Assembly (NCBI GenBank): GCA_023140255.1
Contig: JAGLLX010000010.1
Span: 19,774-83,773, forward strand
Length of the DNA: 64,000 nucleotides
From: Minisyncoccota bacterium
GTDB lineage: Bacteria > Patescibacteriota > Minisyncoccia > Phycocordibacterales > UBA12079
Direction of reading: 5' to 3'
Shown: piece by piece, positions 1,341 through 39,834 of the stretch
Position numbering within the stretch: position 1 is the first letter of the stretch
How the letters are laid out: every line of letters starts with the position of its first letter
Program-made: the position numbers and the translations under genes
Notes under the pieces: model-generated
The model's input: the letters and a program-made list of their open reading frames with translations, nothing else
What the model was told of the DNA's origin: nothing
Database searches by the model: none

Positions 1341-2249
1341 ATGAAAAATACAATTATTACACTTATAATCATTATTGTTCTTGGTTTTGGAGGGTATTTA
1401 ATTTTTAAAAACTCAGGTTCAGACTCAAGTACAACTCAATACCAAAATATAGACTTAATACAAGATACAGATCAAGCCACAACAACTCCTACAACAAAAG
1501 AAAATAAAGAGATGACTGTTATAGGGAAATCTGTTGAGGGACGAGATATTACAGCCTACCATTATGGTGAAGGAGACACTGAAATTCTATTTATTGGAGG
1601 AACACACGGAGGATATGGTTGGGCTACTTCCCTTTTAGCTTACGAAACAATTGATTCTCTAAAACTAGACTCAAGTATAGACCCCGCTAAAATAAAGGTA
1701 ACTGTTATTCCTAGTCTAAACCCAGATGGGTTAAATAAAATTGTTGGAACTTCAGAACGATTTGAATTAGCAGACGCTCCTGAAAAAAGTGTAGACACAA
1801 CTGAAGGCCGTTTCAACGCAAATGAAGTTGATTTGAATAGAAACTTTGATTGTAATTGGAAAACTACTAGTAAATGGCAAAACAAAACTGTTAGTGGTGG
1901 AACTGAAGCCTTTTCTGAACCAGAAGCTCAAGCTATTAAAAATTATGTAGAAGAAAATAAACCAGCAGCTGTTATTGTTTGGTATAGTGCTGCTGGAGGA
2001 GTTTTTGCTTCAAGTTGTTATAATGGTGTCTCAGAAGAAACAAGTACTCTTACAAGTATTTATGCTGACGCATCAGGTTACCCAAAATATGAAAAATTTG
2101 ATTATTATGCAATAACTGGAGATATGGTTAATTGGTTAGCTAAAAAAGATATTCCAGCCATCAGTGTTCTTCTTAGCACTCATAATGATATTGATTGGGA
2201 TAAAAATGAAGCTGGAATTAAGGCTGTTATAAAACATTACATCAAATAA
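1341..2249 (+). CDS. membrane-anchored M14-like peptidase domain protein (paralog A, likely inactive)
   Basis: N-terminal TM helix. Carries the DLNRNFD substrate-binding motif typical of the M14 / gamma-D-Glu-meso-DAP peptidase family. Has HGGYGW in place of the HxxE zinc site and VWYS where paralog B has FWHS. Confidence 0.6.
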   Translation: MKNTIITLIIIIVLGFGGYLIFKNSGSDSSTTQYQNIDLIQDTDQATTTPTTKENKEMTVIGKSVEGRDITAYHYGEGDTEILFIGGTHGGYGWATSLLAYETIDSLKLDSSIDPAKIKVTVIPSLNPDGLNKIVGTSERFELADAPEKSVDTTEGRFNANEVDLNRNFDCNWKTTSKWQNKTVSGGTEAFSEPEAQAIKNYVEENKPAAVIVWYSAAGGVFASSCYNGVSEETSTLTSIYADASGYPKYEKFDYYAITGDMVNWLAKKDIPAISVLLSTHNDIDWDKNEAGIKAVIKHYIK

Positions 2250-3118
2250 TGAATCAACTTTTTACTAAACGAAGAATTGGAGCAATTACTCTATTTACCT
2301 TATTTTGTATAGGCTTATTTACTTTTTATATTTTCTTGAAGACTAATGTAGAAGAAATTCCCTTAGATAATTCTCCAAAATATGAAATAGTTGGATCATC
2401 AGTAGAGGGACGAAAAATTGAAGCTTACACATTTGGAAATGGAGAAACTCAGCTTCTTTTTGTTGGAGGAATACATGGAGGCTATGAATGGAATTCTGTT
2501 TTACTTGCACACAAGGTTATAGATTATCTTAAAATCAATTCTGAAATAATTCCCGAAAATATAAATGTAACAATAATCCCCTCTGCTAACCCAGATGGAA
2601 TATTTAAAATAACCCAAAAAGAAGGATTATTTACAGCAATGGATATGCCTGAAAGTGAAGATACGGTTCAGGGTCGTTTTAATGCAAACGAAGTTGATTT
2701 GAATAGAAATTTTGATTGTAAATGGCAACCTGAAAGTACTTGGCGAAACAAAGTGGTTAGTGCCGGAACTTCCCCGTTCTCTGAACCGGAAGCTCAAGCT
2801 ATCCGAGATTTTGTTTTAGAAAATAATCCTCAAGCTGTTATCTTCTGGCACAGCCAAGCCAATACTGTTTATGCATCAGAATGTGAAAATGGAGTTCTCC
2901 CTGAAACTCTTGATATTATGAATGCTTATGCAAAAGCTTCTGGCTATAAGTCTGTGGATTCATTTGATGCTTACGAAGTAACTGGCGATGCAGAAGGTTG
3001 GCTAGCTTCAATTAATATTCCTGCTATTACAGTAGAACTTAAGACTCATGAATCAATTGATTGGACACAAAATTTAGCAGGTATCAATGCCCTTTTTGAA
3101 TATTATAACTCAAACTAA
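2249..3118 (+). CDS. membrane-anchored M14-like peptidase domain protein (paralog B)
   Basis: Tandem paralog of the previous gene with a TAATG stop/start overlap. Has IHGGYEW, DLNRNFD and FWHS, so the predicted zinc ligands are present. Confidence 0.6.
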   Translation: MNQLFTKRRIGAITLFTLFCIGLFTFYIFLKTNVEEIPLDNSPKYEIVGSSVEGRKIEAYTFGNGETQLLFVGGIHGGYEWNSVLLAHKVIDYLKINSEIIPENINVTIIPSANPDGIFKITQKEGLFTAMDMPESEDTVQGRFNANEVDLNRNFDCKWQPESTWRNKVVSAGTSPFSEPEAQAIRDFVLENNPQAVIFWHSQANTVYASECENGVLPETLDIMNAYAKASGYKSVDSFDAYEVTGDAEGWLASINIPAITVELKTHESIDWTQNLAGINALFEYYNSN

Positions 3119-3254: not shown

Positions 3255-4397
3255 ATGCAAAAAAAATTTACACCCTTATTATTCCTAATGTCTTTAGGCG
3301 CTGGAGGCTTGGCTATCTCAGGCTTTTCATTTTTAAACTATACAATAAACCATGGTGAGGGTCTTGTTTATATAACTCAAATGTTGAATTTAAATTCAAC
3401 ATTTTTAGAACTTTTATTTTATAGAATGGCTGAAATAATAATGGTAGTGTTTACTCTTATCCATTTTTACTTAACTATCTATTTATTAAGAATCTATATT
3501 CCGTGGCTGAAAAGTGAAGAACATAAAATTATTAAAAACAACCCTTTAGAAAACTCTTCATTAGTTACTCCTTTTATCTCATTAATAATGACTATGAATG
3601 TATTTTTAGCGGTTATAAGATACTTTATTCCTGCGGCTGCTGAAAATTTACAAGTATTTATGTTTTCAGGTTTTATTGTTTGGTTATTATTATGGCTAGC
3701 TCTTATGAAAATAGAAATTTCTCTTCTTAAAATTTCATTTTCAAAAAGTTTTGATATCAGTAAAATTAATTTTGGATGGCTCCTGCACCCTTTTGCTTTA
3801 AGCATGTTAACTGTTACGGGTATGGGAATAGCAGCTTTGGCACAAGATTATGTTCTTGCAAGTACAGCTATGTTCCTATCACTTATCTCTGGAACTATGG
3901 GATTATTTTTACTAACAGTAAAATTAATTACATTATTTAAAAGCCACATTACAGCTCCTGGTCTTCCTGAAAAGCAATTTTTACCTAGTTTTTTGATTAT
4001 TGTTCCTAATATTACCCTTTTTGCTATTAGTTTTTTTAGATTTGGTCATTATTTAGAAAATAAAATGCATTTTGAAATGGGTTCTTATTTTATAATAGTA
4101 ATACTTATAAGCTTTGCTTTTGAAATATGGTATATGGCATTTGGAATTACTTTACTTAAAGACTACTTTAAGAAAGAAATGAGAGAAGAATTCCATATTT
4201 CTCAATGGGGATTCATTTGTCCTTTTGTAGCTTTTTCTGTTCTAGCTACTTTTGTACATAATTTATTTATCCCTTCTATCTATTTTAGTATACTAATAAT
4301 ATTAGTAATGCTATTTACATCAATTTTATTTTTCTATCTTTTAAATCGTCATTTAAAATGTGTTAAAAATAAAAAAATTAAATTTGAATGTGTATAA
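3255..4397 (+). CDS. polytopic integral membrane protein (about 10 TM), function unknown
   Basis: Highly hydrophobic 380 aa protein. No motif recognised with confidence. Confidence 0.55.
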   Translation: MQKKFTPLLFLMSLGAGGLAISGFSFLNYTINHGEGLVYITQMLNLNSTFLELLFYRMAEIIMVVFTLIHFYLTIYLLRIYIPWLKSEEHKIIKNNPLENSSLVTPFISLIMTMNVFLAVIRYFIPAAAENLQVFMFSGFIVWLLLWLALMKIEISLLKISFSKSFDISKINFGWLLHPFALSMLTVTGMGIAALAQDYVLASTAMFLSLISGTMGLFLLTVKLITLFKSHITAPGLPEKQFLPSFLIIVPNITLFAISFFRFGHYLENKMHFEMGSYFIIVILISFAFEIWYMAFGITLLKDYFKKEMREEFHISQWGFICPFVAFSVLATFVHNLFIPSIYFSILIILVMLFTSILFFYLLNRHLKCVKNKKIKFECV

Positions 4398-4439
4398 TAA
4401 ATTAGAATTTAAAGACAATTAAAGTTATAATTAAAAACA

Positions 4440-32542: not shown

Positions 32543-33544
32543 TTATAAACTGAAATCACTTAAAGAATACAATTCTTCATCATTTTCATCTTCAGATTGT
32601 GTAGCTGTAAAAGTATTGTCATTCTCACTTAACATTTCTTCTCTTTCATTTTTAATAAAATCAGGATTGTTTTTTTCAAAATTATTTAAAATTATATTTG
32701 CATCATTTTCGACAGCTATTTCATTTTTTAGAATACCAACTATTTTTTTAATATCATCATTAGTAAAGAAATCAATAACTAATTTTCCTCCTGTCTTTTT
32801 CTTTTCTATTTGAACCCTAGTTCCTAATGACTCTGCCAAAGTTTCTTCAAACTCCATTAATTCTGGATCAATAGCAAAATCTTTTTTTCTAACTTTATCA
32901 TAAGCAATTCTTCTCGCTATTTTTTCAGAGTCTCTAACTGACATCTTTTTATAAATGATCTCTTTATATAATGTCATTTGTTCTTGAGGACGATCTTTTA
33001 GCATTAAAATTGGTCTTGTATGCCCTTCAAGAATTTGTCCACTAGCAACAGCTTCCATAATTTCCTCAGGTAAAGCTAAAAGTCTCATTGTATTAGTTAC
33101 ATATTCACGACTTTTTCCCACCTTCTTTCCAATATCAATATGTTTTAAACTGAATTCTTCAATCAACCTCTCAAATGCTTTCGCTCTATCAATAGGGTTT
33201 AAATCTTCTCTTTGTAAATTTTCAATGATAGCTAACTCTAATCTCAAAGCATCGTCTCCTTCATCATCATGAATAATCACAGGGACCTGTGCTAAACCTG
33301 CTAATTTAGAAGCTCTTAATCTTCTTTCTCCAGCAATTAATTCATAAACAGTAGTTAATCCCCCATCCTCCTTTTGTTCTTCTCTACGAGTAACTACTAA
33401 AGGTTGCAATACACCGTATTGCCTAATTGATTCTGATAAAGAATTTAATTTTAGATGATCAAATTCTCGTCTTGGTTGAAAAGGGTTAGGGTTTATTTTT
33501 TCTACTTCTATCCAGTAAATGGAACTATCTTTTTGGTATGACAT
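32543..33544 (-). CDS. parB: ParB/Spo0J-family partition protein with an acidic C-terminal tail
   Basis: LQPLVVTRRE...YELIAGERRLRASKLAGLAQVPVII matches the ParB box region. Confidence 0.8.
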   Translation of the reverse strand: MSYQKDSSIYWIEVEKINPNPFQPRREFDHLKLNSLSESIRQYGVLQPLVVTRREEQKEDGGLTTVYELIAGERRLRASKLAGLAQVPVIIHDDEGDDALRLELAIIENLQREDLNPIDRAKAFERLIEEFSLKHIDIGKKVGKSREYVTNTMRLLALPEEIMEAVASGQILEGHTRPILMLKDRPQEQMTLYKEIIYKKMSVRDSEKIARRIAYDKVRKKDFAIDPELMEFEETLAESLGTRVQIEKKKTGGKLVIDFFTNDDIKKIVGILKNEIAVENDANIILNNFEKNNPDFIKNEREEMLSENDNTFTATQSEDENDEELYSLSDFSL

Positions 33545-33656
33545 GTTTAGTTATTAAATTATATATTATGTCTTTTATTTTAACATAAAAATTAAATTAT
33601 TGAAAAAAAAGGTTAATTACTCTATAATACTAAAATAGATTTAATTAATTGTGCCT

Positions 33657-33740
33657 GCCGGAGTGGCGGAATTGGTAGACGCGCACGACTCAAAATCGTG
33701 TAGGGCAACCTGTGAGAGTTCGATTCTCTCCTCCGGCACA
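33657..33740 (+). tRNA. tRNA-Leu (anticodon CAA), type II
   Basis: Acceptor GCCGGAG/CTCCGGC, anticodon stem CACGA/TCGTG with loop CTCAAAA, long variable arm, T arm GAGAG-TTCGATT-CTCTC. Confidence 0.85.
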
Positions 33741-33919
33741 TAAAACAAAGAACCCAAAGCATTTAGCTTTGGGTAATTTTGTTTTAGTGTTGAGGAGTAA
33801 ATCGAAACGAACGAAGTATATTTTCCGTAATGAAGTGAAGGAAAATACGAGTGAGCGGGGTCGCGAGTTCTTAACGAAGACGAGTCTGCAAGGCGAAGTC
33901 TGAGTTTAGAACTGGAGAC

Positions 33920-33944
33920 CGATTCTCTCCTCCGGCACATAAAA
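33920..33944 (+). repeat. direct copy of the tRNA-Leu 3' end plus trailer (25/25 nt identical to 33721-33745)
   Basis: CGATTCTCTCCTCCGGCACATAAAA repeated 199 bp downstream. Confidence 0.8.
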
Positions 33945-33949
33945 TAATA

Positions 33950-34430
33950 CTTATCCAAAAAAGCTTGACAAATATTTTAGATATGTTATTTTTATGTACA
34001 GTTGTATCTTTTGTGGAAGTAAAGAATTTGTTGGGCTGTCTGACAAATATCTTAATTTCACATCCAAAAAGGAGAAAGGCTATGAAAAAGCTCTGGAAAT
34101 CAACAGCAAACCCGCCCGGGTCAACAAGCAAATCTTTTAAAATAATTTTTGATTCCGCCGCCCCCGGTCACGGACCCGATACCGCCACCCAAAAACGAGA
34201 ATGACGGCGATAATCCGGTCCAGCACCGATCCTTCCTCCAACGATGGAGTCGATACGGATCGGTGCTTGCAGTAAAAGGTTTTGGTGGAGTCCTAATATT
34301 AAGAGGATGTGGAAGCCAGAGTCTTGGGAGAAACGAGTATTCACCCTCTCCCAAAAATGAATGTATGTCGTAGTAGCCGACCAAAAAAAGTTACTATCCG
34401 GTGACATTAATCTGTCACCCAACCCCTCAG
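33950..34430. other. GC-rich anomalous segment, probably a non-coding structured element, unassigned
   Basis: Locally very GC-rich tracts (for example GATTCCGCCGCCCCCGGTCACGGACCCGATACCGCCACCC) in a roughly 30% GC genome. Overlapping ORFs in all six frames with nonsense translations. Internal 10-bp stems such as gcaccgatcc...ggatcggtgc. Ends at a GC-rich terminator. Confidence 0.3.
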
Positions 34431-34466
34431 GGGCGCCCAATCATAATTGGGGCGCCCCTTTTTTAT
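34431..34466 (+). terminator. GC-rich rho-independent terminator
   Basis: aggggcgcccaat-cat-aattggggcgcccc followed by TTTTTT. Confidence 0.7.
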
Positions 34467-34631
34467 ATTTAAAATGTCGGCTACCATATAGCCAGCATTC
34501 AATATTTTGGGGTTTTACTATTCCAGTTAACTGGAATAGTAAAGACCAAAATACTAAACTTCTCACAGAAATAAACAAAATTTAAATTTGTTCATACTAA
34601 AAACTAATTACTATAAACTAACTTACTGAAG

Positions 34632-34706
34632 TGAGCCACCTGTCAGATTCGAACTGACGACCTACGGTTTACAAAACCGTTGCTCTACCAACTGAGCTAA
34701 GGTGGC
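34632..34706 (-). tRNA. tRNA-Thr (anticodon TGT)
   Basis: Minus strand: GCCACCT-TA-GCTC-AGTTGGTAGA-GC-A-ACGGT-TTTGTAA-ACCGT-AGGTC-GTCAG-TTCGAAT-CTGAC-AGGTGGC-T. Confidence 0.85.
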
Positions 34707-34882
34707 TTGATGTTTAATTATGTTATCATATTTTCAATAAATCTAAAACCGTTGCTCCGCCTATTTCCTATCTCGCTATCGCTCGATAACGGAAATTTTT
34801 TCTTTTAGAAAAATCGGATGAAAAACAAGTAGGTTTGTTTTTCCTTCAACTGCCCGTCCAAGACGGGTCAGCCTTGGGCTGA

Positions 34883-34922
34883 AGCTAAGATGGCTTGGTG
34901 TTTAATTATATTATCATATTTT
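34883..34922 (-). repeat. direct copy of the tRNA-Thr 5' end plus about 26 nt of its upstream (promoter-side) sequence (about 36/40 identical to 34695-34734)
   Basis: AGCTAAGATGGCTTGGTGTTTAATTATATTATCATATTTT versus AGCTAAGGTGGCTTGATGTTTAATTATGTTATCATATTTT, 188 bp away. Confidence 0.75.
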
Positions 34923-34937
34923 TCTAGAAATTCAATA

Positions 34938-35324
34938 CTAAAATCTTAGTTCATCTCTATCCTCTAAAGCCTTATTTTTATGTTCTTCTATATTTTTTAA
35001 ATAATCTGAATTAGGTGCCGCAATTTTTTGTTTATATAATTTATCAATCTGATTATTAGTTCTTTTAATTATTTTATTTTTAAGTAAAATAACTTTTCTT
35101 TTAATTTTAAATAAAAATTCTGTTCCCTCCAATAGCAATAAAATCAAAAGTTTTTTTAAATATTTTCTCAATAAAAGAAATAATTTTTCAAAAAAATCAT
35201 CGCTTCTTTGCATAAATCCAGAACTTACAAAATTCATCCAAAATTTTAATCTAGACCCTTTGAAAATAAGCATCAAACAAACAAGAATCCCTGATATTAA
35301 TATACTTACTATTAAATAAATCAT
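34938..35324 (-). CDS. hypothetical small membrane protein
   Basis: N-terminal TM helix followed by a K-rich region. Lies upstream of tsf on the same strand. Confidence 0.4.
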   Translation of the reverse strand: MIYLIVSILISGILVCLMLIFKGSRLKFWMNFVSSGFMQRSDDFFEKLFLLLRKYLKKLLILLLLEGTEFLFKIKRKVILLKNKIIKRTNNQIDKLYKQKIAAPNSDYLKNIEEHKNKALEDRDELRF

Positions 35325-38065: not shown

Positions 38066-39834
38066 TATTTTTTATTTTCTTTATTAAATTTATCAAATAA
38101 TTCTTCTAGAGAAATTTGAACTGAGTCTTCCCCATCCCTAGATTCTAAGGTCATTTTATTATTTTTAATATCATCATCTCCAACAATTACAAAGTAGGGA
38201 ACTCTCTCGTTTTTTGCTTCCCTAACTTTTTTACCAAAATTATTATCTGATCTATCTATCTCAACTCTAAAATCTTCTTTCCTCAATTCTTCAAAAATAT
38301 TCTGAGCATATTCATTATGTTCATCAGCTACTGGAATAATTTTCACCTGAGTAGGCGCAAGCCAAAATGGAAAATTTCCTCCGTAATGTTCAATAAGGAT
38401 TGCGACAAATCTTTCCAGTGAACCTAATAAAGCTCTATGAATCATAATCGGCCGTTCCTTCCCCTCTTTACCTTGATAAGTCATATCAAATTTTTCAGGC
38501 AAATTAAAATCAAGTTGAATTGTAGTTAATTGCCATTCTCTTCCAATTGAATCCTTAACTTTCAAATCAATAGCTGGTCCATAGAATTTAGCTCCTCCTT
38601 CTTCCACTTCATTAGGAATATTAAATTCTTTAATTATTTCTGTAATTACTTTTTCAGATGAACTCCAAATTTCATCAGTTCCTAAATATTTATCTAATTT
38701 TGGATCTCTGGTAGCAATATATGCTTTTATAGATTCTTTTTTAAATCCAAAAATTTCTAGAATATCTATTGTAAATTGTAATACTTCTCTATATTCATCA
38801 ACAAATTGATCTTGCCTACAAATAATATGAGCATCGTCTTGAGTAAAACCTCTTACTCTAAGCATTCCTGCTAATTCTCCAGATTTTTCATATCTATAAA
38901 CAGCACCTAGTTCGTTCCAACGAAATGGGAAATCTCGCCAAGACCTTGGTCTAAATTTATATATTTCAACATGAAAAGGGCAATTCATTGGTTTAATATA
39001 ATATTGTTCACCATCAACATCCATAGGTGAATACATCATTTCTTTAAAATTCTTTAAATGACCTGATGTTTCCCATAATTCAGATCTTCCAATATGAGGT
39101 GTATAAACTGCGTCATAACCTCGTTGTCTATGAAATTTCCGCCAAAAAGACTCTATTACTTCTCTTGTTTTAGATAATTTAGGATGCCATAAAATTAAAC
39201 CTGCTCCAACTTTTTGACTAATACTAAAATAATCTAATTCTTTTCCTAATTTTCTATGATCTCGTTTCTTAGCTTCTTCCATCATTTTTTCATATTCCTT
39301 TAATTCTTCAGGGTTTTCAAAAGCTACCCCATAAATTCTTTGAAGCATTTTATTTTTTTCATCACCCTTCCAGTAAGCTCCAGCAATTGTAGTTAATTTA
39401 AATGCTTTAGGATTAATTTTTCCAGTAGATTCCAAATGAAAACCACTGCACATATTAATAAAATCTCCTTGTTGATAAAAAGAAATTTCTGTTTCTCCTT
39501 TTTCCTTTAATTCTTTAGCTAACTCAAGAGTATAAGTATATTTTTTATCTTTTAAAAGATTAATCCCTTCTTCAATAGGTAAAACTTTTTTCTCAATAGG
39601 TAAATCTTTATTGATAATTTTTATCATTTCCCTATTAATTGTTTTTAAATCTTTATCTGTAATTTGTGATTCTGCATCAAAATCATGATAAAAACCATTT
39701 TCAATAACTGGTCCAACTGCAGGGATAGCACCATGCAGTTGTTCTAAAGCTTGCATTAAAATATGCGCTAAAGTATGGCGCATTTGCTCTAAATTTTCAT
39801 TTTGTTTTTCTTCCATCAATTTATTATATAACAC
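38065..39834 (-). CDS. thrS: threonine--tRNA ligase (lacks the N-terminal TGS extension)
   Basis: Class II motifs including HRALLGSLERFVAILIEHYGGNFPFWLAP, and a C-terminal anticodon-binding domain. Confidence 0.9.
   Translation of the reverse strand: MLYNKLMEEKQNENLEQMRHTLAHILMQALEQLHGAIPAVGPVIENGFYHDFDAESQITDKDLKTINREMIKIINKDLPIEKKVLPIEEGINLLKDKKYTYTLELAKELKEKGETEISFYQQGDFINMCSGFHLESTGKINPKAFKLTTIAGAYWKGDEKNKMLQRIYGVAFENPEELKEYEKMMEEAKKRDHRKLGKELDYFSISQKVGAGLILWHPKLSKTREVIESFWRKFHRQRGYDAVYTPHIGRSELWETSGHLKNFKEMMYSPMDVDGEQYYIKPMNCPFHVEIYKFRPRSWRDFPFRWNELGAVYRYEKSGELAGMLRVRGFTQDDAHIICRQDQFVDEYREVLQFTIDILEIFGFKKESIKAYIATRDPKLDKYLGTDEIWSSSEKVITEIIKEFNIPNEVEEGGAKFYGPAIDLKVKDSIGREWQLTTIQLDFNLPEKFDMTYQGKEGKERPIMIHRALLGSLERFVAILIEHYGGNFPFWLAPTQVKIIPVADEHNEYAQNIFEELRKEDFRVEIDRSDNNFGKKVREAKNERVPYFVIVGDDDIKNNKMTLESRDGEDSVQISLEELFDKFNKENKK

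Follow-up and report, generated by a model that had tools for sequence, protein, structure and literature searches.

Dual-function bacterial small RNAs (sRNAs) that carry a short open reading frame (ORF) include RNAIII/hld of Staphylococcus aureus, SR1/SR1P of Bacillus subtilis and SgrS/SgrT of Escherichia coli. RNAIII is 514 nt long, and its 26-aa ORF lies near the 5' end. Here we describe a GC-rich unit in a 64,000-nt stretch of contig JAGLLX010000010.1 from a Minisyncoccota bacterium; this whole stretch is called the window, and positions are counted from its first letter. The unit lies between a tRNA-Leu and a tRNA-Thr gene. We read it, at about even chances, as a strongly promoted, base-paired RNA of ~465 nt that would also be the mRNA of a 40-residue peptide, that is, as a dual-function structured RNA. 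The likeness to the described dual-function sRNAs is in the layout: a predicted stand-alone transcript of a few hundred nucleotides, many hairpins, and a short ORF that lies in the 5' half and is followed by a structured 3' domain, with RNAIII being closest in size and organisation. There are also differences. The described RNAs have C-rich target-binding loops, whereas the core of the unit is a three-helix module with a kink-turn (k-turn); the host belongs to the Candidate Phyla Radiation (CPR), translation is predicted, and neither sequence nor Rfam family relates the unit to these sRNAs.

A similar build is found in the mRNAs of type I toxins, such as hok, tisB, aapA1 and fst. Like the unit, these are highly structured RNAs of 300-500 nt that have a strong promoter, a hairpin at the 5' end, a small ORF and long-range pairing around it, and they too sit in variable regions. 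However, neither a membrane helix nor a hydrophobic stretch is seen in the peptides of the unit and its homologues, which are hydrophilic with much Pro, Gly, Thr and Ala. Further, a consensus scan found no antisense promoter overlapping the unit; the sole promoter-like site on the minus strand (33971-33944) points away from it. On these two grounds a type I toxin-antitoxin system was rejected.

K-turns occur in HmKt-7, in SAM-I, lysine and T-box leaders and in box C/D RNAs (PMC5061560). The unit shares the motif with them, i.e. a 3-nt bulge, the G.A and A.G pairs, a canonical (C) helix, here called P2, and a non-canonical (NC) helix that runs into P1. The k-turn is, however, a building block and not a gene family, and the RNA around it in the unit matches no k-turn-bearing riboswitch, T-box or snoRNA family. 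Large and orphan noncoding RNAs (ncRNAs) have also been discovered by the IGR-GC approach, in GC-rich intergenic regions of AT-rich genomes (PMC8632094, PMC11109978). ROOL, GOLLD, OLE, raiA and HEARO resemble the unit in being long GC-rich intergenic islands of AT-rich genomes, often beside tRNAs and with conserved helices, but the unit is smaller (~465 nt), carries an ORF with a canonical Shine-Dalgarno (SD) site and ATG, and has five members in one narrow clade. We regard it as a new family within a known kind, the orphan structured small RNAs with an embedded mini-ORF.

The first-pass annotation of the window had marked about 0.5 kb (33950-34466) between tRNA-Leu and tRNA-Thr as GC-rich and apparently non-coding. 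The enrichment is real, with the caveat that the first ~130 nt (33950-34080) are an AT-rich promoter and 5' untranslated region (UTR) outside the GC island: GC is 0.435 for 33950-34466 and 0.483 for 34082-34466. A sliding-window GC plot, which the annotation had suggested, puts 34021-34500 at the top of the window. Using 200-nt windows, the peak is 0.52 (99.9th percentile), while the mean is 0.298 with a standard deviation of 0.051. This is also the only run of at least 0.44 GC that is longer than a tRNA; the remaining 200-nt windows at or above this level are one tRNA and one coding stretch. The GC richness is attributed to the base-paired segments of the unit. Overlapping frames on both strands had been noted as well, and they are there: the ORFs of 74-90 aa that cover the GC-rich segment have no match in Pfam. 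In the source assemblies no gene is called in the interval between the two tRNAs.

To find related units, the syntenic loci of relatives were fetched via relatives of the neighbouring ParB protein and then via a LAGLIDADG protein that is described below. The L-numbers denote these fetched loci or contigs; L003 and L016 are the same sequence, as are L067 and L068, and each is counted once. Four more distinct copies are present at the same tRNA-Leu/ParB locus (L001, L003, L061 and L067), giving five units together with the window. They form two subgroups, one of the window and L001, the other of L003, L061 and L067. The identity of ParB to that of the window is 90% in L001, 77% in L003 and 78% in L061, but between the subgroups the units share only ~50% of their nucleotides. 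This is far below what the flanking tRNAs and ParB would lead one to expect, and the unit therefore evolves quickly. All five have a promoter, a 5' hairpin, an SD-ATG ORF with its stop codon in a hairpin, a 3' module of helices P1, P2 and P3, additional hairpins and a terminator. No fewer than seven other relatives are without the unit at this locus. It is not found at the same interval, the only locus considered here, in L002, L048, L052, L064, L066 and L069, and in L053 and L063 ParB has a different upstream neighbour. From this distribution the unit appears to be an accessory, lineage-restricted and strain-variable gene.

The promoter matches the consensus at 10 of 12 positions, plus the TG of an extended -10 element (Table 1). 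L001 and L003 carry its 26-nt block CTTGACAAATATTTTARATATGYTAT without a change and L061 with a single mismatch; a search of the window that allows up to three mismatches finds the block a single time. Together with most of the spacer the promoter is common to all five units. Transcription is inferred to start near 34000. As the elements stand in the sequence, ~34000-34464 on the plus strand appears to be a unit of its own, running from promoter to terminator and giving an RNA of ~465 nt, as expected for the transcript of a dual-function sRNA. The promoter itself is not a marker of the family. A scan of metagenomes with the promoter pattern gave 37 contigs, and the sequences downstream are unrelated, except for one duplicate of L003, so it is taken to be a generic strong CPR promoter.

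The RNA is predicted to be folded over much of its length. On the plus strand the folding energy has a z-score of -4.55 against shuffled sequences, and on the minus strand of -4.18; since the minus strand also beats its shuffles, the strand cannot be told from folding energy alone. The assignment to the plus strand comes from the promoter and from the T run, which follows the terminator stem on that strand only. With the window and L001 as input, RNAalifold gives a covariation term of -13.5 and a fold that contains the 5' hairpin, P1, P2 and the terminator. In the 5' hairpin 17 pairs are kept, six of them via changes on both sides, and in the terminator two pairs are changed on both sides. At the same 5'-proximal position L003, L061 and L067 have a hairpin of another sequence. 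Where the window has P0, L001 has at the aligned place an unrelated hairpin, CCGCTGA...TCAGCGG, directly before a shared linker, GCYTGCAGTAAA, and aligned with the hairpin at 34400-34419 L001 carries GGTAGC-N5-GCTACC. The stem of P0 and the GC-rich terminator had both been pointed out in the first-pass annotation, and both are present (Table 1).

Table 1. Position of the features of the GC-rich unit, of its flanking tRNAs and of endonuclease genes at the same locus in relatives. Positions refer to the window unless a locus is named. MFE, minimum free energy.
Feature	Position	Strand	Details or basis
tRNA-Leu(CAA)	33657-33739	+	ARAGORN/Rfam scans
Promoter	33965-33992	+	-35 TTGACA (33965-33970), 16-nt spacer, extended -10 TGT-TATTTT (33984-33992)
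5'-proximal hairpin	34015-34059	+	in MFE fold
Shine-Dalgarno AAGGAG	34069-34074	+	7 nt before ATG
Small ORF, 40 codons + TGA (34202-34204)	34082-34204	+	MKKLWKSTANPPGSTSKSFKIIFDSAAPGHGPDTATQKRE; kept in all five units
Helix around last codons and stop codon	34172-34221	+	GGACCCGATACCGCC / GGCGATAATCCGGTCC; MFE and centroid fold
Hairpin P0	34223-34266	+	GCACCGATCC (34223-34232) ... GGATCGGTGC (34257-34266); fold; stem flagged by first-pass annotation
Kink-turn module	34278-34323	+	alignment A8 of five sequences
P1, 5' strand	34278-34285	+	
UGGA	34286-34289	+	
P2 hairpin	34290-34308	+	
3-nt bulge GUG	34309-34311	+	
GAAG	34312-34315	+	
P1, 3' strand	34316-34323	+	
Hairpin P3	34324-34354	+	TTGGGAGA ... 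TCTCCCAA; directly abutting P1'; comparison of the units
Hairpin GGTGAC-N8-GTCACC	34400-34419	+	MFE and centroid fold
Intrinsic terminator	34430-34464	+	GGGGCGCCCAAT / ATTGGGGCGCCCC (13-bp GC stem, 34430-34458), then TTTTTT; MFE fold
tRNA-Thr(UGU)	34633-34706	-	convergent with the unit; ARAGORN/Rfam scans
LAGLIDADG gene, L001	625-1215	-	
LAGLIDADG gene, L002	5212-5763	-	
LAGLIDADG gene, L003	903-1493	-	
LAGLIDADG gene, L067	2096-2686	+	
LAGLIDADG gene, L069	3001-3678	+	
GIY-YIG ORF, L066	2935-3174	-	at the spot of the LAGLIDADG gene

The sole sequence block common to all five units lies ~80-100 nt 3' of the stop codon and consists of an A-rich linker and the 3' module. Helix P1 has 8 bp. In alignment A8 of the five sequences 95% of P1 is paired and 5 of the 8 pairs are changed on both sides. 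When the closing pair of P2 is included, 93% of the cells are paired and 6 of 9 pairs are changed on both sides, with G-C replaced by A-U, U-A by C-G and G-C by U-A. As a control the partners were slid by one to three columns, which leaves 27-56% paired, and shuffling of columns never reaches the observed score. The strands of P2 are UCCU/AGGA in the window and GCUC/GAGC in L001; L003, L061 and L067 all have CCUGG/CCAGG. P3 differs by group, with UUGGGAGA/UCUCCCAA in the window, UAGGG/CCCUA in L001 and GGUG-UUGAGAAC/GUUCUCAA-CACC in the L003 group, where changes from G-C to A-U and from A-U to G-U are also seen. When each subgroup is folded on its own with RNAalifold, P1 and P2 are obtained both times, and for the L003 group the fold contains P1-P4 with 14 pairs changed on both sides.

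Between P1 and P2 there is an internal loop, in which UGGA stands opposite NNN-GAAG in all five sequences; the bulges are GUG, GCA, UUC, UUC and UUA. A k-turn is defined by a 3-nt bulge followed on its 3' side by G.A and A.G pairs (PMC5061560), and the predicted loop fits this standard consensus. In all five units the C helix, P2, is on the side of the bulge and P1 continues the NC helix; in the window and L001 P2 is exact. At the 3b,3n position the unit has A.G, as does HmKt-7, the Kt-7 of H. marismortui, and for this combination folding in Mg2+ without protein is reported (PMC5061560). By this rule the k-turn of the unit is predicted to fold in Mg2+ alone. The motif is also rare. In related DNA (2 x 423 kb) a strict pattern for a k-turn hairpin matches three times, and two of these matches are inside the unit. 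When the 423 kb of fetched loci and the window are searched with R1, a covariance model of the module, no copy beyond the five units appears. A 24-bit match of R1 inside the gene of threonyl-tRNA synthetase (ThrRS; 38580-38634, minus strand, E ~0.003) is regarded as chance.

Some points count against the dual-function reading with its k-turn module. L003 and L061 have a bulged C (1 nt) in the C helix, and L067 departs from a perfect k-turn by U.U at the -1 pair and one additional U. The covariation statistics are weak, as there are only five sequences, in two tight groups plus L067. Finally, no domain of the L7Ae/YbxF type was found in ten scanned ORFs at 14-28 kb. Other readings of the UGGA and GAAG strands, as a selenocysteine insertion sequence (SECIS), as the "UGGN" of a T-box or as part of a tRNA-like structure, were dropped: only the ORF of the window ends in UGA, no gene follows, and there is no T-box match.

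It should be asked whether the small ORF is translated. GGAG or GGAGG stands 5-7 nt before the ATG in all five units and A-rich codons follow it, and this start is kept although the surrounding 5' UTR has diverged. The ORFs have 40, 40, 62, 52 and 51 codons. In the closest pair, L003 and L061, the indels inside the ORF are 3, 30 and 3 nt long and the stop codon is kept, while those outside the ORF (5, 5, 2, 2, 4, 3, 1 and 1 nt) are mostly not multiples of three. Within the L003 group the ratio of nonsynonymous to synonymous substitutions (dN/dS) is 0.31-0.49. A frame of this length would also seldom stay open by chance (0.07-0.20 per shuffled sequence). Further, the gene calls of two public assemblies include the 52- and 62-aa products. 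Taken at sequence level these features make translation of the ORF rather likely. The SD site and the ATG of a possible 40-aa peptide had been seen in the first-pass annotation and are where it placed them, but its label "non-coding" for the segment is probably too strong, given the start that is kept in five of five units, the in-frame indels and the two homologues called as genes.

A different picture is obtained from the composition of the ORF, and here the evidence weighs against translation, or at least against the peptide as the principal constraint. The GC content at third codon positions (GC3) is 0.40-0.61 across the units, 0.45 in the window, as compared with 0.13-0.20 in nine genes of the window. 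The ORF uses CCC, GCC and ACC, which are rare codons in this genome, and this fits a frame that is untranslated or only incidentally translated. For the window and L001 dN/dS is 0.88, and between the subgroups the peptides are only 23-28% identical. The segment LAPDP, the best conserved of the peptide, is encoded where one strand of a predicted helix lies. In shuffled sequence a frame as long as these stays open with a probability of 0.07-0.20 per sequence. All this would be expected if the same transcript were a pure ncRNA, with a frame that is open since GC-rich paired sequence has few stops and that is either not translated or gives a product of no function; that no gene is called in the window unit agrees with it. 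We consider a pure ncRNA a possible but fairly unlikely explanation, as it leaves unexplained the strong SD site amid a diverged 5' UTR, the indels in multiples of three within the ORF and the low dN/dS of the L003 group. Under the dual-function reading, RNA structure is inferred to be the dominant selective constraint on the sequence of the ORF, because its GC3 is far above that of neighbouring genes.

The opposite simplification is an ordinary small-protein gene, where the peptide of 40-62 aa is the only relevant product and the hairpins of the UTRs do nothing but stabilise the mRNA. The order of promoter, SD, ATG, stop and terminator is that of an mRNA, and elsewhere the same type of promoter precedes tiny ORFs that are clearly coding, such as that of a 21-aa peptide in L027 and L025. 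However, the sequence after the stop codon (~260 nt in the window) is at least as conserved as the ORF and holds the module with compensatory changes that is found in all five units. Codon usage is opposite to that of native genes and, as given above, the peptide is barely conserved between the groups. We think this explanation is unlikely. Pfam gives nothing below E = 0.02 for the small ORF, for the homologous peptides or for any of the six ORFs in the region that reach 60 aa. A profile of four peptides, searched against 5.8 billion proteins, returns only the peptides of L003 and L061 plus compositional matches, and so does HMMER against 1.84 billion representatives. In a six-frame tblastn comparison among the units, the frame of the small ORF is one of several with weak cross-matches, mostly proximal to the promoter, and there is nothing notable in the 3' half.

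The position of the stop codon may connect the ORF to the fold. It lies in the loop of a hairpin in every unit, and the sequence of this hairpin differs by lineage: GGUGC-ACCGUAA-GCACC in L001, CAGGU-AAnnG-ACCUG in L003 and L061, and CGG-GUAAA-CCG in L067 (putative helices, read from the sequence). If the unit is a dual-function RNA, its fold would be the main selected feature, and it would impose both the GC-rich rare codons on the ORF and the stop codon inside a hairpin. Ribosomes on the ORF would have to melt the helices around the stop codon, which may couple translation to the fold or to the availability of the 3' domain. The k-turn module could be the functional core, either by binding a protein or by acting as the hinge in a compact tertiary fold with P1 and P3 stacked, while the 5' hairpin and the terminator may stabilise the transcript.

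We compared the locus with 4227 families of Rfam 15, at the gathering threshold for the whole window and at E ≤ 10 with permissive filters for 33400-35100. At the gathering threshold the window has six tRNAs and nothing else. In 33400-35100, tRNAs aside, every match at E ≤ 10 is far below the threshold of its family. In particular, there is no match at E ≤ 10 to tmRNA, RNase P RNA, the RNA of the signal recognition particle (SRP), 6S RNA or a group I or group II intron, nor at either level to ROOL, GOLLD, OLE, HEARO or raiA. The first-pass annotation had rejected tmRNA, RNase P RNA, SRP RNA and fragments of rRNA by eye, and had named a covariance search of Rfam as the check that might reclassify the segment as a known RNA. 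The search gives no such match, and the rejections hold. Its suggestion of a novel structured RNA also finds support: the unit represents an undescribed family, and its helices show compensatory changes in four related genomes. For T-box leaders and known k-turn riboswitches there is no Rfam match either, and no gene downstream that could be regulated, because the convergent tRNA-Thr follows the terminator.

A very divergent housekeeping RNA, i.e. RNase P RNA, tmRNA, SRP RNA or 6S RNA, could in principle have been missed by the models. Its typical size, GC richness, own promoter and terminator and place among tRNA genes are all seen here. However, besides the lack of any family match, ARAGORN reports no tmRNA and there is no tRNA-like 3' end; the unit closes with an intrinsic terminator, and its ORF of 40 codons starts from a canonical SD and ATG. 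A tmRNA has a tRNA-like domain with an acceptor/T arm, and its tag frame lacks both SD and ATG. It is also missing from the locus in several close relatives, and an identity of ~50%, where ParB is 77-90% identical, is unlike a universal RNA. The same patchiness and divergence count against RNase P RNA in particular, which is universal and single-copy. We regard a missed housekeeping RNA as extremely improbable.

The segment had also been proposed to be a degraded mobile element or a fragment acquired by horizontal gene transfer (HGT), and the locus gives some reason to take this seriously. The interval from tRNA-Leu to tRNA-Thr is variable between relatives and contains homing-endonuclease genes, tRNA fragments, tRNA-like repeats, palindromes and small cassettes. 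A free-standing LAGLIDADG gene of 196 aa (Pfam PF14528) is found in L001, L002, L003, L067 and L069, always directly 3' of tRNA-Leu(CAA) (Table 1). Where both occur (L001, L003 and L067), it is directly 5' of the promoter of the unit. Its protein is 82% identical between L001 and L003, and the gene is thus better conserved than the unit. In L066 a GIY-YIG ORF is at the same spot. Together with fragments of tRNA-Leu and tRNA-Thr that flank the unit and with the patchy distribution among close relatives, this would fit a non-functional remnant, either a decaying piece of a mobile element, e.g. an intron-like RNA associated with a homing endonuclease, or a GC-rich HGT fragment.

Against a remnant stands the state of the copies. 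Each of the five diverged copies still has an intact promoter, SD, ORF, helices and terminator, and compensatory substitutions are seen, which argues for purifying selection and not decay. Endonuclease and unit occur independently of each other: the window and L061 have the unit without the LAGLIDADG gene, while L002 and L069 have the gene without the unit. For group I or group II introns, in addition to the missing family match, there is no exon context, and the unit is intergenic with its own promoter and terminator; the repeat of tRNA-Leu at 33921-33944 is a repeat of the 3' end and not a split of the anticodon loop. Comparing loci with and without the unit we found no repeats or clean insertion boundaries that would define it as mobile, the flanks being too diverged. 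In distant mode, blastn against collections of phages and plasmids gave no match. With a promoter of native type, a compensatory terminator and one chromosomal locus in five genomes, neither a degraded element nor an HGT fragment is favoured, and we judge a remnant to be quite improbable. A history as a mobile cassette may nevertheless lie behind the unit, given a hot spot beside homing-endonuclease genes.

The host is a CPR bacterium (Paceibacteria-like), neither a phage nor a plasmid. ParB and the whole 1381-nt interval are 100% identical in the "Candidatus Pacebacteria" metagenome-assembled genome (MAG) GCA_030636105.1 (contig DAOVXP010000004.1) and in ENA assemblies of the same project, among them scaffold_9 of ERZ23498471, and at species level the nearest relatives are MAGs of the Paceibacterota/Patescibacteria. 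The neighbouring genes are chromosomal housekeeping genes, coding for ParB, queuine tRNA-ribosyltransferase, EF-Ts, S2, a release factor, ThrRS and ribonucleotide reductase. To our knowledge, CPR/Patescibacteria have tiny genomes with many genes of no assigned function, and almost no regulatory RNAs that have been studied by experiment. The unit, missed by gene callers and by Rfam, is a concrete candidate for a lineage-specific RNA function, and the hot spot bears on how accessory functions are gained and lost in reduced genomes. With a narrow family of five known copies the practical value is moderate. A bolder proposal, which we hold to be doubtful, is that the unit would be the first member of an undescribed, CPR-specific class of ribonucleoprotein or riboregulator RNA, with a k-turn three-helix core whose folding is gated by translation of the mini-ORF and with a cassette that travels in tRNA-linked hot spots beside free-standing homing endonucleases. 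If true, mini-units in other CPR contigs (L025, L027 and L031, see below) would join a wider, unrecognised layer of small structured coding RNAs in reduced genomes.

A number of further observations were made at the locus. At E ≤ 1e-20 more than 1000 CPR proteins fall into the family of the LAGLIDADG protein, and the window has neither a LAGLIDADG nor a GIY-YIG gene at this spot. In the window, the 3' end of tRNA-Leu(CAA) with five trailing bases is repeated exactly as a 24-nt direct repeat, at 33722-33745 and 33921-33944, and looks like an att-type or gene-conversion scar. The 175 nt between the repeats (33746-33920) contain the terminator-like hairpin of the tRNA and an apparent copy of the T-arm with an insertion. 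The arrangement is common to L003, while L048 and L061 carry tRNA-Leu inverted.

On the other side, a second copy of the region upstream of tRNA-Thr, with the 5' acceptor and D-arm, is present in the window (~34745-34922, minus strand), in L067 (~3880-4080) and in L069 (~4170-4400). This partial copy has an insert of ~50-125 nt in the D-loop and stops at GAGCAACGGTTTT, which is the 5' strand of the anticodon stem. The relatives have the same arrangement with an insert of another sequence. Moreover, tRNA-Thr carries a fused tandem array of one to four tRNA-like repeats in L048 (1-300), L052 (3500-3590), L069 (3720-4080), L061 and L002 (4733-4824). They share the T-arm and the 3' acceptor strand of tRNA-Thr but have an aberrant anticodon arm, GAAAGC...GCTTTC, and ARAGORN labels one of them "tRNA-Ser(act)". 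The window has no such repeats.

Small promoter-to-terminator units are found in other CPR contigs as well: three in L025 (minus strand, within 1-1660), one in L027 (2373-2720) and one in L031 (1041-1640). In these mini-units the same promoter block (TTGACAAATATTTTAGATATGCTATACT) is followed by a long 5' UTR and a tiny, GC-rich ORF. The ORF for a 21-aa peptide (MK..VG.CRAGPV.GNT.I) in L027 and L025 is truly coding, because the differences are synonymous. A relation of the window peptide to the peptides of L025 and L031 (PP...SF.KIIF...HG) was seen by eye only, with no support from nucleotide comparison or a covariance model, and is not claimed. Directly after the GC-rich unit, L061 (~2100-2250, minus strand) and L067 (~3330-3420) have a further tiny unit with a promoter-like site and SD of its own; its ORF starts with MTRIKKPNLNSG and codes for 13 aa in L067 and 48 aa in L061.

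In L061 the variable interval is flanked by two copies of a long inverted-repeat element (ggattgcttc...gaagcaatcc) that is similar to a miniature inverted-repeat transposable element (MITE), one ~100-200 nt upstream of ParB and the second ~1400-1600 nt further along. Finally, between the terminator of the unit and tRNA-Thr the window has a perfect 30-nt palindrome, TTTACTATTCCAGTTAACTGGAATAGTAAA (34514-34543), and L048 has similar ones. The palindrome might serve as a bidirectional terminator or be bound by a protein.

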